Below are positions 20,274 through 60,770 of a stretch of 64,000 bases of DNA, piece after piece. Source of the DNA: Clostridiales bacterium DTU072 (GTDB taxonomy: Bacteria > Bacillota > Clostridia > Christensenellales > DTU072); contig LFSG01000046.1 of assembly GCA_001512685.1 (NCBI GenBank), forward strand, positions 17,707 through 81,706, written 5' to 3'. Below the pieces are notes generated by a model that was given only the letters and a program-made list of their open reading frames with translations, had not been told where the DNA came from and searched no databases. The number at the start of each line of letters is the position of its first letter. The stretch's first letter is position 1. Position numbers and translations under genes: made by a program.

Positions 20274-20506
20274 TTAGCCATGCCGTTTAACTTGAGGCAA
20301 AAATATCATAACCTCCATATAATATAGCGTAACTGAGAACGCCGCATAGGGCCCATGCTTAAGTTTGGATTAAGAATAATGTGCAAAAATAAGGGCGTGA
20401 ACGCGCTTGGGTTGCCTTTGAAGAAAAAATTAGTAAAATAGGACAAAACACGCGACGGATAAGCAAGTAGCCAAAAATACCCAGCTTGCCAAAAAAATAT
20501 TAAATG

Positions 20507-20535
20507 TTGACATCGCAAAATTAATACCTTATAAT
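20507..20535 (+). promoter_or_regulatory. Near-consensus promoter of the first giant-locus gene
   Basis: TTGACA (20507-20512), a 17-nt spacer, then TATAAT (20530-20535), ~30 nt upstream of the start codon. Confidence 0.6.
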
Positions 20536-20565
20536 TTATTCACAAAATCTTGTATGGAGGGTTAT

Positions 20566-59000: not shown

Positions 59001-60026
59001 GAGGAAGATTTTGCGGTAACAGGTTATGACAAAACTAAAATAGGGGTGCAAAATATTACCGTTACATATATAGTAACGGGAGATTTTTGGACTTATCAGG
59101 TCGAGGTAAGGAATAAAATACAAAGAATTGTTGTGGATTATGAAAAATCAAAGCTGATATACGCTTTGGGAGAGCCTCTTTCCATCGTTATGTATTGCGA
59201 ATATGTCAACGGGGAACAGTCTTTGATTACCGATTCGTTCATTCATGATTTCGATAGTACGAAAATCGGGGTTCAGCAAATAAATATCAGTTATTGGGGA
59301 ACTTACAGCGTCACTTTAATTGTGGAAGTAATAGATATTCCCGTGGAGATTCAACTTATCGCTCCCGCCAAAAAATACTACGATTACGGCCAAACGCTGG
59401 ATTTAAGCGGGGGCAAGGTGATTCTGACTACCAAGAGCGGCACCAAAAAAACCTTAAGCATTTCGGCGTATGAAGATTATTTGACGCCCTTTAATCCCAC
59501 GCCTTCAAAAGGAGGAGCGCAGGTAATATTCTTGAATTTGACTCAATTCGGGCTTTCCACAAGCTTCAAGGTTTATGTAAGAGAAAAAAACGCCAGTCCG
59601 CTGCTTGTGCTTAATGAAGGCGTGCAAGGCGTAAAGATTGACAGAATCAATACCAGAATAATTTTTGACGAAGGAACTATTTTTGCCGAATTTATGGACA
59701 AGGTAAATTCCTATGCCGATATCCTTTGCAAAAAGAAGGACGGAAGCTATATGGATATCGTCTATGACCAAAATATGTTTTTGAATTCCGACATATCGAT
59801 AGAAATAAGAAATTCCGAAGGCGCTTTGCTGGAAGCTTTCAGCGTATACGTCAAAGGCGACGCCGACAAGAACGGAATATTGGACCAAAACGATATTCCT
59901 TTGCTTGCTCAGGCATTGCTGCAAAACACAAGCAACGCGGCGATATACGCCGATTACAACGGCGACGGCGTATATACGCTTACAGACTTTGTTTTGTGGA
60001 CGCAAAAAGCCAAACAGCTTCAATAA
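53091..60026 (+). CDS. Secreted multidomain protein (2311 aa): M6 (immune inhibitor A-like) metalloprotease, RCC1 propeller, Big_2, RCC1 propeller, Big_2, ~9 Ig-like repeats, dockerin
   Basis: Evidence along the protein:
- N-terminal signal/anchor helix.
- M6 blocks: …YYYKLSYGKINVE…, GGMLWPHSWDL, HEFAHVLGVPDLY (HEXXH codons 54057-54071), GNWDLM.
- ~36-aa RCC1-type blades: 6 in ~55265-55900 and 7 in ~56223-57000.
- Two Big_2 units (…KIGQTYQLNPTVLPYNAT…SSGNPEKVSVTADGLITALQVGTAVIT…).
- Ig-like repeats of the type …YYYGEEIDLGGG…, …YDYGQTLDLSGGKV….
- C-terminal dockerin. Confidence 0.9.
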   Translation: MKKKAKITYIAILTLFILALAFFAMEGFEDRRLSPQGEIVGKNTFRQTMVQADGVTVEFFASGDQYFNYLHDKDGYILLRHNGYLVYAKEKNGRPMPSSVKYTDSREKIDALDKMVYSDIDFSLNPDLITEYPEQQSSALYQSAQSHQPIINIVIFICFAGETVNLDRQLIDGYLNGSENSLADYYYKLSYGKINVESVYPQTSGDNIYVYQDSNPRSYYQLKEGASNRARRESQLLNSAVAASRYYFDLQGLDIDTDNDGFVDSVNFLISGTPYSSWGGMLWPHSWDLYDISNGNSQTINGLRVRKYSFNFLEQLTVGLLAHEFAHVLGVPDLYHYNDSHAAVGNWDLMHYEADIPQFMTTHLRYKYLNVVNDCQIGIVEYNGVYSLKPVTAASPHDIVAYRINTDKSDEYFMVEFRNNNIAGYDASLPGAGLIIYRIKQGVYGNSEALKHNAQKPDEVYIFRPNVVTTGSEATKSLGNLNKAYLSPHNPDFYKVGSSLQQKPNSYFDSDTLYYTNGRNSGISIEAIAINDDQIIFEVKLSGVDNVDNNYFLNKLSIENAKLNNDSQFSGVYADLNVSDINLSYLKSLYATLKSQSGNEITVVHLDRNKFVEAYQSGLRSFAVRFVVNRKGSSLISVFYDAQWNNFNEPATMELYAVDSDNDNIKIGEYDINKSYASWASIEMTGMAYKPSVDASMTSTVIVKKDGRAVVSSVNPSLDRLSIEGVISASIGAYHLLCVKSDLKVWAYGNMNQGENNVGDWTNIIKAVAGEHTSYGLDYKGNVYCAGQNTLTGVNEWRDIIDISAGEKHIVGLQANGRVLALGNNEYQQCQVSEWTDIVAIAAGHKFTAGLKKNGKVVIAGELSDAYLAQGWSDIKKIAAGENHLLAIDGGGKVYAAGENFHGQCNVQDIYDIIQIAAGKDHSVMLREDGEIIYAGHIEHDLLDDNLIYINDDYVEVTSITSPFDKKILKIGQTYQLNPTVLPYNATYKKMTYSSGNPEKVSVTADGLITALQVGTAVITGRHRGSELKITVEITVQEPINTKAMIAAGDKHSVILDNSGTVYSSGSNDYGQLDVNMWGNVVFVAAGGNTTIGITPENKLLVAGEMAGMGAEQWTDIVFAATSGNAIVGITQSGICKAIGDDDYKQVTTYISERTDIKAVALSSTHIVALKKNGTVIAFGNNSSGQTEVGHWRKVAQIAAGEGFSLGLTEEGEVLYAGASPYVQDMTIIEGWKDIVYIAAGPYHIAAVDFDGNVYAVGNNSHGQTDAGGLENIGLIACGGAHTVGIDFYGVTAGIGRNYDGRLHLPDVNELPYIELNDITFEEESYSDDVIFGVKIGEKRKLNPVFNPFNATDRKSQNITYISSAPAIASVDQRGFITGMSAGSAVVTMTVRGNGEQKTASIQVRVYSNAISVSIAQQPFKTVYRYGERLSLLGGRAIVRISSETSYSKKITKDMIENYDTVTNAYGNVMVKVRDGQAFAKYEITVVNVTQSIEITDISNLKTIYYYGEEIDLGGGWVTRTLADGSKLDAQTMQSLDDGKGSLEIIADTHILASTFVTLKYTDPDPIALKAGIVNVIYISFEIAVFDKVIGITPNLSKSVFAYGEEIFGNGELIIKMQSGADIIEPIIRKTDIEDGEDSVIVIEGYDKYVLGAQNVKFRYYNPDFDIPLSLYPQVSVTVEDSVSHLIVTSMMLNDAAVYDSNKHYDQSILARVSFYGGAVIDVGNVDGQPLFENIHLGFDDYQQGDGFENINMHVWVKNTLGGYSKLYTVVQKVFGLSSVEELQLIGQSSFKYGEETDLRLWIKVGNDTEYTIEIDDWVLGVDNTLLTPQTISFTLMGKTAQKTIQFFDYVTGIYTRQLNITVIVGQEYNQIPLDVYCVMASGAEQTVQNWTMSNYDKNKLGTQYVTVNYTFNYEQFHYNITVNVIDVIDEIRVLSSPKTLYEVYQDLDLSDFSIRLIFRQSTPQDIHYNEEDFAVTGYDKTKIGVQNITVTYIVTGDFWTYQVEVRNKIQRIVVDYEKSKLIYALGEPLSIVMYCEYVNGEQSLITDSFIHDFDSTKIGVQQINISYWGTYSVTLIVEVIDIPVEIQLIAPAKKYYDYGQTLDLSGGKVILTTKSGTKKTLSISAYEDYLTPFNPTPSKGGAQVIFLNLTQFGLSTSFKVYVREKNASPLLVLNEGVQGVKIDRINTRIIFDEGTIFAEFMDKVNSYADILCKKKDGSYMDIVYDQNMFLNSDISIEIRNSEGALLEAFSVYVKGDADKNGILDQNDIPLLAQALLQNTSNAAIYADYNGDGVYTLTDFVLWTQKAKQLQ
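59850..60023 (+). other. Type I-like dockerin module (two Ca-binding F-hand segments)
   Basis: GDADKNGILDQNDIPLLAQALL … ADYNGDGVYTLTDFVLWTQ matches the duplicated D.N.DG.I…D…L pattern of dockerins. Confidence 0.75.
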
Positions 60027-60041
60027 AGAGGGGTGGAGCGA

Positions 60042-60770
60042 ATGAAAAAAATATTGGCGGCGTTATTTATTTTGATTTTCTCGTTTTGCTTGGCGGGCTG
60101 CCGAGATAAGCAGATAAAAGCAGGCGACATAAGCTATATAGAAATACAGAAAGGCTCTTTCAAAACAGTTTATAATGTGGACGAGAAAATAAACTTCGAC
60201 AATGTTTATATCGTCATTGTGTTAAAAAACGATAAAGGCCACATCGTGCAGAAAGTAACTCCGGATATGCTTGAAGGCTTTGACACTTCCACTACCACAG
60301 GGCCTACCCAAAGGCGCTCCATGAGAGTCAAATACTTGGGCATGTATACTTCATATTGGGATTATGTGGTGGTAAGCGAATATAATATTATTACCAAGGC
60401 GCGGCTTAAGCTGAATGAAAAAATAGAAGGCGACAACTTCTTTGTTACCTTGAATTTGGATTTTCAGGATTTAAGCCCCGTTTACGCTTTCATGATGACC
60501 GTAAGGTTTGACAGCTCCCAATTGGACTATAATGACGATGTGCTTTTGTATAACAGCGGCTGGGAATTGGAAAAAAGGAACATAAATCCGGGGAGCTTCA
60601 CCTTTATTTATTATTGCGGTAAAGAAGGCCGAGCGGTTGTCCAAAGCGGCGATCTGTTGAGGTTTTGCTTTAATAAAAAGGTAGCAGGAAGCGTCAATGT
60701 GGAAATAGAGGAAATCACATTGAGCGACGGAAATAACGACATCAATCTTCCCGATGTAAAATTAATATAA
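60042..60770 (+). CDS. Lipoprotein with one Ig-like repeat and a C-terminal cohesin-like domain
   Basis: ATG at 60042 (GGTGGAG upstream), 15 nt after the protease stop. Lipobox FSFCLAGC. The first ~85 mature residues repeat the Ig-like unit of the upstream protein (…FKTVYNVDEKINFDN…VKYLGMYTSYWDYVV). The rest (…FFVTLNLDFQDLSPVYAFMMTVRFDSSQLDYND…GSFTFIYYCG…GDLLRFCFNKK…VEIEEITLSDGN) follows the cohesin beta-sandwich pattern by eye. Confidence 0.75.
   Translation: MKKILAALFILIFSFCLAGCRDKQIKAGDISYIEIQKGSFKTVYNVDEKINFDNVYIVIVLKNDKGHIVQKVTPDMLEGFDTSTTTGPTQRRSMRVKYLGMYTSYWDYVVVSEYNIITKARLKLNEKIEGDNFFVTLNLDFQDLSPVYAFMMTVRFDSSQLDYNDDVLLYNSGWELEKRNINPGSFTFIYYCGKEGRAVVQSGDLLRFCFNKKVAGSVNVEIEEITLSDGNNDINLPDVKLI

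Follow-up and report, generated by a model that had tools for sequence, protein, structure and literature searches.

Staphylococcus Ebh and Embp are surface adhesins of several thousand residues; they are made up of numerous tandem repeats that hardly differ from one another, and are anchored to membrane or wall at the C terminus. The two largest products of the locus described here, B and C, resemble them in length, in belonging to a Bacillota surface, in their small β and helical domains and in a presumed reach far out from the cell for adhesion. They differ in sequence repetition (BLAST, HMM and HH-level searches found no repeats in B or C except four helical units in C), in being lipid-anchored at the N terminus with no LPXTG motif, and in forming an obligate paralogous pair; no common sequence family is detectable.

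Giant proteins of 10,000–85,000 aa have been described from metagenomes of Omnitrophota and gut Clostridia (West-Roberts et al., bioRxiv 10.1101/2023.11.21.568195). These either combine many transmembrane regions with SecA DEAD domains or are wholly repetitive (RCC1), with dockerin and RCC1 repeats found on giant Clostridia proteins; the study makes no mention of lipoproteins or Christensenellales. B and C are likewise very long open reading frames (ORFs) from metagenomes, but are lipoproteins with one N-terminal hydrophobic segment and no sequence repeats.

On balance, we lean towards reading the locus as two adjacent surface modules, not as one five-part machine. The first would be the tandem of paralogous giant lipoproteins B and C, with A as an extra, and the second would be D and E, with a putatively cytoplasmic glycosidase, F, downstream. 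A–E are five contiguous plus-strand ORFs occupying 62.8% of the window (the whole 64,000-nt stretch of DNA analysed), in agreement with a preliminary description in which five same-strand genes filled ~63% of it. The start coordinate given there, 20391, is intergenic, lying upstream of A, whose ORF opens at 20554; the genes themselves stand.

20554–22725, plus strand: ORF of A, 723 aa, or 719 aa from the MKKNIF start at 20566
20566–22725, plus strand: A, 719-aa acidic lipoprotein (pI 4.1; lipobox VVAC), its first ~400 aa a remote paralogue of the head of the giants
22989–33881, plus strand: B, 3,630-aa giant lipoprotein, B-type (lipobox IVAC)
33899–52927, plus strand: C, 6,342-aa giant lipoprotein, C-type (lipobox MISC), 17 nt past the B stop
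53091–60026, plus strand: D, 2,311-aa secreted multidomain protein with Pfam, NCBIfam and PDB sequence matches
60033–60770, plus strand: E, 242/245-aa lipoprotein (lipobox LAGC), 6 nt past the D stop
60791–62260, plus strand: F, GH20 β-N-acetylhexosaminidase (Pfam Glyco_hydro_20, E 8.6e-104)

Each of the five products has a single N-terminal hydrophobic segment, and none of A–E has a transmembrane segment beyond the signal peptide. The export signal claimed for every product is borne out by the lipoboxes of A, B, C and E and by the ordinary signal-peptide-like N terminus of D; the reported lack of LPXTG motifs also holds for all five proteins. GC content is uniform along the locus, the context is chromosomal, and plasmid and phage collections gave no match to it.

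Very long metagenome ORFs can be artefacts, and this prior is all that speaks for the giants being assembly chimeras or decaying pseudogenes. At 90% identity, B clusters with 47 members and C with 76, mostly full length (3,630 and 6,342 aa) and drawn from NCBI, ENA, MGnify, JGI and Logan assemblies, one of them on a 1.7-Mb contig. Five sources thus contribute dozens of independent assemblies with identical or near-identical full-length copies. Orthologues at 25–61% identity align collinearly over their whole length, and GC content is even over the locus. An artefactual origin is vanishingly improbable, and we regard it as refuted by the independent full-length copies and the end-to-end orthologues.

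None of A, B and C matches Pfam, NCBIfam or PDB sequences, which upholds the earlier placing of the giants outside any described family. Profile searching of the whole library (1.84 billion cluster representatives) retrieved about 119 relatives, with E<1e-30 for about 100; almost all are lipoproteins of 2,500–6,860 aa that match at the N terminus, and the lipobox cysteine is invariant across 76 family members. Two subfamilies emerge, B-type and C-type, each with end-to-end collinear homology (orthologues of B at 30–61% identity, of C at 25–51%) and with mutually exclusive C-terminal modules. B and C belong to a real and hitherto undescribed family of giant surface lipoproteins that come in pairs, so far seen only in Christensenellales-type Clostridia, a range drawn from the titles of three genomes and the NCBI names of two proteins.

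In every locus examined (the window, L006, L010, L011 and five distant loci, L016–L020), the B-type gene lies directly upstream of the C-type gene, 16–67 nt apart. Related species keep parts of the order seen here, namely A-B-C in L009 and L010, B-C in L006 and L011, and C-D-E-GH20 in L015. The five more distant genomes retain the B-type/C-type tandem in unrelated contexts with A, D and E absent nearby; conserved synteny, raised as a check on the five-gene set, holds for parts of it among relatives but not for the full set at greater distance. The conserved unit is the tandem pair, not the five genes.

The preliminary description assigned a shared N-terminal module to A, B and C. For B and C this is evident by BLASTP (22% identity over ~1,500 aa), whereas A joins them at the profile level only, the common part being its first ~400 residues. 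Aligned by hhalign to the giant head profile, A scores a probability of 97.8% with its signal peptide and 89.5% (E 2e-6) without, against 0.2% for a reversed control. A homologue of A (40% identical) lies upstream of a 3,627-aa B orthologue in L009, and A is a lineage-specific extra to the B–C pair.

We modelled two tiles of C (aa 25–1200 and 5193–6342); half of the second tile is of low confidence, so that confident modelling covers about one sixth of the protein. Profile searches gave no sequence family for A, B or C; structure prediction, proposed beside them in the preliminary description, supplied folds for the head, the β-sandwiches and the tip of C.

33971–36178, plus strand: head module of C (aa 25–760), AlphaFold2 model m53424f18b7fa, mean pLDDT 83.7
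36236–37228, plus strand: β-sandwich (Ig-like) domains of C (aa ~780–1110), from model secondary structure
50066–51418, plus strand: four tandem helical repeats of C, ~100–125 aa each (aa 5390–5840)
52112–52924, plus strand: C-terminal right-handed parallel β-helix of C (aa ~6070–6342), model mfc987177dfc4, local pLDDT 80–94

The predicted head spans ~750 residues of long antiparallel β-meanders and helices, with LolA/LolB-like open barrels among its subdomains. Foldseek pairs these subdomains with LolB, LolA and DUF1329 at probabilities of about 0.9, with weaker matches to microsomal triglyceride transfer protein. Because TM-scores are low (0.2–0.38 on the target), we confine the predicted likeness to the level of fold. 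LolA/LolB, LolA_like, DUF1329 and LppX/LprG-type proteins thus share with the head a fold class placed beside a lipid anchor; they differ in that the head belongs to none of these sequence families and fuses several barrels and helices into one ~750-aa unit in C. To our knowledge, no Lol pathway is expected in Bacillota. The head is the best-conserved part of the giant family, which, together with these fold matches, could suggest that it handles hydrophobic ligands, with the pair either trafficking lipids or lipoproteins or forming a bridge that takes lipids across the wall or to partner cells. We consider such a role highly improbable: beyond the low TM-scores, LolA-like half-barrels are common and functionally diverse lipoprotein scaffolds, and more than 80% of each giant lies outside the head.

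Downstream of the head, the β-sandwich region of C gives multi-domain Foldseek matches to BbgIII and the SbsB S-layer protein, and family members match Pfam Big_4 and MBG_2. The four units at aa 5390–5840 share the motif NWPxxxEEK...AKAxAYDxLY...YPxYD...KAxxWDxI and are predicted, at low to moderate confidence, to be helical. The SbsB matches might be taken to mean that the giants form a structural envelope layer, a lipid-anchored coat or S-layer substitute, and not adhesins. Every genome examined that carries the family has the pair, which in some sits among housekeeping genes (beside rpmH-rnpA-yidC in L020), and B and C together take up ~1.7% of a 1.7-Mb contig, all in keeping with that view. 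We nonetheless judge it decidedly unlikely, as the SbsB matches reflect generic Ig-like chains, searches turned up neither SLH nor any other wall-binding domain, and S-layer proteins are usually self-assembling and of 40–200 kDa against 400–730 kDa here.

The tip of C bears on a further claim of the preliminary description, that the locus holds no catalytic motif apart from the M6 protease of D. This overlooked the C-terminal β-helix, which by fold lies closest to PL6 lyases and further enzymes acting on polysaccharides: Foldseek probabilities reach 1.00 to PL6 alginate lyases, GH55, pectin methylesterase and pectate lyase, with chondroitinase B and GH28 also among the best matches. Identity to the matched enzymes is 10–12%. 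The module lies at the extreme C terminus in 28 of the 29 proteins in which it was detected, and one family member (P0050) matches Pfam Beta_helix (PF13229); the helix closes the C-type proteins, whereas B-type proteins have no such helix. The last ~270 residues of C thus share a predicted fold with β-helix polysaccharide enzymes (PL6, pectate lyase, GH55, GH28; Pfam Beta_helix/CASH), but tip a 6,342-aa lipoprotein instead of forming a free enzyme, and match no family model.

From this model, C-type proteins might primarily be cell-surface enzymes, in which a very long stalk holds a catalytically active β-helix, a lyase or hydrolase of polysaccharides; the pair would then serve to forage for polymers resembling pectin, alginate or glycosaminoglycan. 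Beyond the fold matches, glycosidase genes stand on both flanks of the locus, and the JGI contig names are suggestive of biogas-reactor metagenomes. We hold this reading possible but doubtful, given the low identity, the absence of any match to a CAZy-type Pfam family, the many surface-protein β-helix domains that only bind, and the B-type partners without a helix. As modelled, the parallel β-helix fold would fit binding or catalysis alike.

B and C are probably long adhesion or sugar-binding fibres. Lipidation would fix both proteins to the cytoplasmic membrane, in its outer leaflet; they would be made together, probably associate through their related heads, and may reach through the wall and beyond it as fibres on the order of 100 nm, with the β-helix of C binding, or possibly cutting, polysaccharide on particles or neighbouring cells. 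Such a tip would imply a role in adhesion or foraging. Most likely, then, the locus encodes fibres tipped by a glycan-binding or glycan-cleaving domain beside a separate protease tethered by cohesin and dockerin.

That protease, D, combines M6, RCC1, Big_2 and Big_3 domains (Pfam and NCBIfam) and matches BLIP-II and RCC1 among PDB sequences.

53616–54404, plus strand: M6 metalloprotease domain of D (aa 176–438), TIGR03296 120.6 bits against a cut-off of 110.8
59853–59996, plus strand: dockerin-like module of D (aa 2255–2302), Pfam Dockerin_1 18.2 bits, under the cut-off of 22.9

The HEXXH motif of this zinc-protease domain is intact (HEFAH at aa 323, readable as HEFAH...GNWDLM). These signatures bear out the first description of D, a genuine M6 metalloprotease-domain protein that also has RCC1 propellers and a dockerin-like tail. 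The tail carries duplicated calcium-loop motifs, DADKNGILDQND and DYNGDGVYTLTD; both are retained in the L015 orthologue of D (same position, 50% identical), which scores 16 bits to Dockerin_1. In E, an Ig-like region at the N terminus is followed by a cohesin-like domain at the C terminus, aa 128–228 scoring 22.1 bits to Pfam Cohesin (cut-off 24.1), and a protein identical to E is named 'cohesin domain-containing protein' at NCBI. We treat the cohesin assignment as tentative because this score is below the cut-off, the E orthologue in L015 (same position, 46–47% identical) is not matched by the Cohesin model, and PDB sequences searched by profile with E yielded no cohesin. Dockerin for D and cohesin for E were reasonable calls, both falling under the curated Pfam cut-offs.

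D would be held at the cell surface through the cohesin-like domain of E. The arrangement recalls the way in which cellulosomal enzymes are tethered, with the anchoring scaffoldins of Clostridia and Ruminococcus, in that a dockerin-like protein neighbours a cell-bound one with a cohesin-like domain, a comparison bounded by the sub-cut-off scores of both. It differs in that what docks is no CAZyme but a protease of the M6 type bearing RCC1 propellers, that E has one cohesin-like domain where a scaffoldin has several, and that the anchor is a lipid-modified cysteine, not SLH or sortase.

A, B and D each have a promoter-like site of near-consensus sequence ahead of them, a pattern pointing to three transcription units (A, B-C and D-E-GH20), although sites of this kind in the scanned region are near chance (11, against 8.1 expected from shuffles).

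20507–20535, plus strand: promoter-like site upstream of A, TTGACA-17-TATAAT (12/12, consensus match only)
22883–22911, plus strand: promoter-like site upstream of B (11/12)
53025–53054, plus strand: promoter-like site upstream of D (11/12)

These sites weigh on the proposal that one extracellular apparatus, tethered to the membrane, needs all of A–E, with a fibre or sheath formed by the giants and the protease docked onto it via E. The five genes are exported, contiguous and on one strand, A has the head of the giants, and both the A-B-C and the C-D-E-GH20 orders recur in related species at 40–65% identity. An obligatory assembly is nonetheless unlikely. The B-type/C-type pair stands alone in the five distant genomes, the promoter-like sites are three and separate, and the sole cohesin-like domain is on E and not on a giant, with neither dockerin nor cohesin detected in A, B or C. 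A single five-part machine thus has partial support: the membrane-tethered extracellular proteins survive, and the single conserved five-gene unit does not. In our two-module reading, the modules lie side by side only here and in close relatives of this species, and any functional coupling between them would be optional, not defining.

The flanking glycosidases named in the preliminary description fared differently. Downstream, the Pfam Glyco_hydro_20 match secures F, which has no signal peptide and adjoins D-E both in the window and in L015, where its orthologue keeps the same position at 65% identity (46–65% across D-E-F). Upstream lies a GH38N/DUF5054 gene, the match to which is weak.

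The locus comprises five ORFs of the six-frame ORF list and a gene downstream of them, with two stretches within C and D considered separately:

20554–22725, forward strand: ORF A, a lipoprotein of 723 aa, or of 719 aa from the MKKNIF start at 20566
22989–33881, forward strand: ORF B, a giant lipoprotein of 3630 aa
33899–52927, forward strand: ORF C, a giant lipoprotein of 6342 aa
50066–51418, within C (aa 5390–5840): four tandem, predicted helical repeats of ~100–125 aa each, with the motif NWPxxxEEK...AKAxAYDxLY...YPxYD...KAxxWDxI
53091–60026, forward strand: ORF D, 2311 aa
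aa 176–438 of D: M6 domain (NCBIfam TIGR03296, 120.6 bits against a cut-off of 110.8)
60033–60770, forward strand: ORF E, a cohesin-like lipoprotein of 245 aa
60791–62260, downstream of E: F, a GH20 gene

ORFs A–E take up 62.8% of the window, in agreement with the preliminary description of five consecutive forward-strand genes filling about 63% of it. GC content is even along the locus (0.41–0.48), and the remainder of the window carries chromosomal housekeeping genes (serS, feoAB, a P-type ATPase and a lipid kinase). Intergenic gaps are short for B–C (17 nt), D–E (6 nt) and E–F (20 nt); near-consensus sigma-70-like sites are predicted upstream of A (12/12), B (11/12) and D (11/12).

Assembly chimerism, a concern raised when the locus was first described, is ruled out for the giants B and C by end-to-end collinear orthologues and independent full-length cluster copies, as is pseudogene origin, and we give an artefact virtually no credence. 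An independent Logan assembly holds identical B and D and a C likewise of 6342 aa. The 90%-identity clusters of B (n = 47) and C (n = 76) are mostly full length, with members from NCBI, ENA, MGnify, JGI and Logan. A contig of 1,715,476 bp contains one copy of B and C, together ~1.7% of its length, and cluster look-up places the identical E protein on 133 contigs; on these figures the metagenomes sampled so far carry the organism commonly, and its genome may be small.

A family profile covering residues 1–1200 of B, C and the C orthologue P0001, searched against 1.84 billion cluster representatives, matched 119 proteins (about 100 at E < 1e-30), almost all of 2500–6860 aa and aligned at their own N terminus. 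B and C share 22% identity along their first ~1500 residues (BLASTP). BLAST separates two subfamilies, each collinear end to end with its prototype—B-type (30–61% identity to B) and C-type (25–51% to C)—whose C-terminal modules are mutually exclusive. Family-wide conservation maps to five blocks of C (aa 1–1400, 1800–2300, 2800–3100, 4500–5400 and 5700–6342), separated by stretches present in the closest orthologues only.

Pfam gives no match for A, B or C at E ≤ 0.01 and, at E ≤ 10, returns noise with faint Big_4 and MBG hints for B and C; none of A, B, C and E has an NCBIfam match, and PDB sequence searches are empty for B, C and E. For sequence, the earlier statement that the giants fall outside nameable families thus holds. 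Pfam matches among 11 scanned members are limited to Big_4 (three members) and MBG_2 (one), and the member P0050 matches Beta_helix (PF13229). In literature searches on Christensenellales giant lipoproteins and dockerins, no account of such a family came up. Homologue searches returned nothing with an 18-sequence family alignment, one orthologue with 1500 aa of C and two with A. Three related genomes from the locus search bear the titles 'Christensenellales bacterium' or 'uncultured Christensenella sp.', and the NCBI label of the organism itself is 'Clostridiales bacterium' or 'Christensenellales bacterium'; since the narrower alignment used for related loci gave only three genomes, the taxonomic range is under-sampled. 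The giants make up a hitherto undescribed family of paired lipoproteins with a narrow distribution.

Close relatives preserve the locus in segments. An A homologue (40% identity) precedes a 3627-aa B orthologue in L009, where the upstream context differs from that of the window; B is followed by C in L006, L010 and L011; and the end of C is followed by D (50%), E (46%) and GH20 (65% identity) in L015. In five more distant family loci (L016–L020), a B-type gene lies directly upstream of a C-type gene in 5/5 cases, 16–67 nt apart, and none has A, D or E near the pair, the surrounding genes being unrelated. Because this tandem is all that recurs in L016–L020, and promoter-like sites precede A, B and D, the conserved unit is the B–C pair; A and D–E–F are lineage-specific neighbours, probably transcribed separately. 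The synteny anticipated for five genes is hence kept piecewise in close relatives and reduced to B–C in distant loci. A single five-part apparatus, as the preliminary description proposed, would suit the unbroken run of genes and the segments kept in L009 and L015, but with only B–C retained at a distance we regard it as quite unlikely; the observation itself is confirmed, its interpretation only partly supported.

Two of these distant loci have neighbours worth recording. In L020 (21665–27353) the B-type/C-type pair sits immediately upstream of rpmH-rnpA-yidD-yidC-jag-mnmE-mnmG, a group normally close to the replication origin. In L018 (27421–31031; GCA_028748325.1) the pair is followed, 6 kb downstream, by a further gene that encodes at least 1942 aa and begins like a signal peptide; by BLAST it does not belong to the family.

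Export signals are present on every product, as first noted. A signal peptide with a lipobox placing Cys at +1, characteristic of signal peptidase II substrates, is found in A (VVAC), B (IVAC), C (MISC) and E (LAGC), for which lipidation is predicted, and D has an ordinary signal-peptide-like N terminus. All 76 sequences of a family alignment have the lipobox Cys, and nearly all full-length members begin with a signal peptide and lipobox. Each of A–E has one N-terminal hydrophobic segment and no second, hence no C-terminal membrane anchor. LPXTG is absent from all five by motif scan and Pfam finds no SLH or other wall-binding module in them (B and C searched up to E ≤ 10), an absence the preliminary description had correctly reported.

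Sequence and models would place the B–C pair among giant cell-surface fibres or adhesins, and we propose that it works like giant Gram-positive adhesins. Repeat-type adhesins (Ebh/Embp, Bap, RTX/LapA-like) possess long tandem arrays, which B and C lack apart from the four helical units of C, together with LPXTG, a C-terminal membrane anchor or a T1SS signal, whereas B and C have neither LPXTG nor a C-terminal hydrophobic anchor. Giants from Omnitrophota and Clostridia are multi-transmembrane, SecA-bearing or wholly repetitive (10.1101/2023.11.21.568195); compared with the Omnitrophota type, which has many transmembrane regions and a SecA DEAD-like domain, B and C have one N-terminal segment and no such Pfam domain.

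A recurring 'DPY...LP...V.F..G....W' pattern raised the idea that the giants are arrays of divergent Big_4-like repeats; this was rejected, each domain being found only at its orthologous position by iterated HMM and HH comparison. BLASTP finds no self-matches in B or C, an HMM that started from an Ig-like domain recovers, after iteration, a single site per protein, and hhalign of that domain against full-length C returns the self-match only. The helical units of C are the one exception; they are kept in the closest orthologues and have no Pfam family, and their helical prediction is of low confidence.

By plain sequence comparison, A matches B and C in the signal peptide alone. Profile–profile comparison aligns A 80–400 with the head (the N-terminal module of the giants) at 89.5% probability (E 2e-6) without signal peptides and 97.8% with them, against 0.2% for a reversed control, and so the head module attributed to all three lipoproteins holds, B–C by BLASTP and A by profile. 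An AlphaFold2 model of C residues 25–1200, using 40 relatives (mean pLDDT 83.7, pTM 0.61), predicts long antiparallel β-meanders interleaved with helices (26–760), then β-sandwich domains (780–1110). Foldseek of the whole model against the PDB gives weak matches to multi-domain β-proteins, such as BbgIII and the S-layer protein SbsB. The latter would accord with giants that form a structural coat, but S-layer proteins of Bacillota carry an SLH or other wall-binding module, for which A–E have no Pfam match, and we consider a coat decidedly unlikely.

Sub-domains of the modelled head resemble LolB, LolA and DUF1329 (9rlg_L, 1iwm, 3wjv and 4mxt) at Foldseek probabilities of 0.89–0.94, which could suggest lipid handling by LolA-like heads; the same matches have target TM-scores of only 0.25–0.35 and r.m.s.d. 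of 10–15 Å, the query being a 1176-residue multi-domain model, and Pfam finds no LolA-type match in the giants. We hold such a role to be very improbable. A mobile-element origin was rejected because plasmid and phage collections contained no tblastn match to the head; among viral structures, Foldseek found none for the head model at E ≤ 1e-3.

At the other end of C, a model of residues 5193–6342 (mean pLDDT 58.8) is confident over its last ~450 residues. Ig-like domains are predicted to lead into a right-handed parallel β-helix with three strands per turn (local pLDDT 80–94). In Foldseek, PL6 alginate lyases, GH55, pectin methylesterase and pectate lyase (7o7a, 5gkq, 8bwk, 8jhh, 5c1e and 7xks) match this helix at probability 1.00, and chondroitinase B entries more weakly (0.69–0.96). 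As modelled, it is the only stretch of the giants whose fold is typical for proteins that act on polysaccharides, and it was overlooked when M6 was named as the only catalytic motif. The tip shares its predicted fold with PL6 and pectate-lyase enzymes but lies outside their sequence families. C could be imagined as a true surface enzyme, which we see as possible, if unlikely.

D belongs to peptidase family M6 (InhA-like), scoring above cut-off and carrying HEXXH, which bears out the original protease call. Beyond TIGR03296, Pfam Peptidase_M6 matches at 27.9 (cut-off 22) and the zinc site is intact (HEFAH...GNWDLM, HEFAH at aa 323); further Pfam matches are RCC1_2/WD40_RLD, Big_2 and Big_3. The dockerin first ascribed to D stands on its duplicated loop-plus-helix C terminus with two calcium-loop motifs, DADKNGILDQND and DYNGDGVYTLTD (corresponding to GDANGNGVFDIND and GDITGDKRYTLTD in the L015 orthologue), but falls short of the Dockerin_1 (PF00404) gathering threshold (18.2 against 22.9 bits; 16.0 bits for the orthologue). 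For E, residues 128–228 match Pfam Cohesin (PF00963) at 22.1 bits (E 1.9e-4), just under the cut-off of 24.1, and the NCBI name for this very protein is 'cohesin domain-containing protein'; against this, an orthologue of ~46–47% identity has no match to the model at E ≤ 1, and a two-sequence E profile finds no cohesin among PDB sequences. From its sequence, the C-terminal domain of E is likely a cohesin, in qualified agreement with the first reading. D–E beside the giants is probably a lipoprotein-anchored cohesin–dockerin protease module. Its docking logic is like that of the cellulosome, which combines a multi-cohesin scaffoldin with dockerin-bearing carbohydrate-active enzymes, whereas here there is one cohesin-like domain with a lipid anchor and the only dockerin-like module sits on a protease, placing the locus outside that class.

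F matches Pfam GH20 above threshold (348 bits, E 8.6e-104), vindicating the downstream glycosidase annotation, and has neither signal peptide nor dockerin. The next gene, for an 893-aa P-type cation ATPase (62257 onward), begins within the stop of F; in L015 the GH20 gene still adjoins D–E and the ATPase does not.

We lean, with some reserve, towards a composite reading. B and C would be made together, with lipid anchors in the cytoplasmic membrane, would likely join via their paralogous heads, and would stretch through the wall and further out as long fibres, the tip of C binding or cleaving polysaccharide on particles or neighbouring cells; D would be kept at the surface by E through a cohesin–dockerin-type contact. 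For the fibres, the basis is the lipoprotein signals, the common head of A, B and C, length without sequence repeats, the C-type β-helix tip and obligate B-type/C-type pairing; for D and E, it is the M6 domain with its intact zinc motif, the dockerin-like tail and tight D–E coupling. A bolder reading makes the pair a new heteromeric, lipid-anchored surface organelle specific to Christensenellales: two giant paralogues free of sequence repeats, joined at the membrane by their LolA-like heads, would carry a polysaccharide-lyase-fold tip >100 nm out and so attach cells to one another or to particles, as in the flocculation and syntrophic partnerships of this lineage. This seems rather improbable, and a variant in which the heads move lipids along the assembly is less likely.

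Guts and anaerobic digesters widely contain Christensenellales, about whose surface biology, to our knowledge, very little has been learnt. Giant surface proteins without a known function are as such no rarity; as far as we know, C (728 kDa) would rank among the largest predicted bacterial lipoproteins. Defined here are ~100 sequence clusters of lipoproteins of 2500–6860 residues, without Pfam, NCBIfam or PDB annotation and with a B-type/C-type pair in the loci examined. They come with a confident head model, an expressible lyase-fold tip and a candidate cohesin–dockerin pair tethering a protease via a lipoprotein, not a wall anchor. If the pair is an adhesion or foraging fibre, it would be a molecular basis of attachment in Christensenellales; if not, it remains well-delimited protein dark matter.

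Other features of the window, two of them (annotated from the identical locus L008) just upstream of A, are as follows. The first of these two was described as a GH38-like flanking gene at 17.5–19.6 kb; the gene is there, but its GH38N match is weak and accompanied by DUF5054.

17515–19572, reverse strand: 685-aa gene with weak GH38N and DUF5054 matches, just upstream of A
19742–20218, forward strand: Cu/Zn superoxide dismutase gene, just upstream of A
507–687, reverse strand: cobalamin riboswitch RF00174 (84 bits; gathering score 31.5), whose controlled gene would lie below 507, near the window edge
12953–13029, forward strand: tRNA-Arg(CCT), in a low-GC (0.385), ORF-poor stretch at ~12–14 kb
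9727–11085, reverse strand: ORF of 452 aa whose leucine-rich repeats match the NCBIfam model for the adhesin HupY/LrrG (E 2.5e-21, far under cut-off), which from its sequence may be another surface protein
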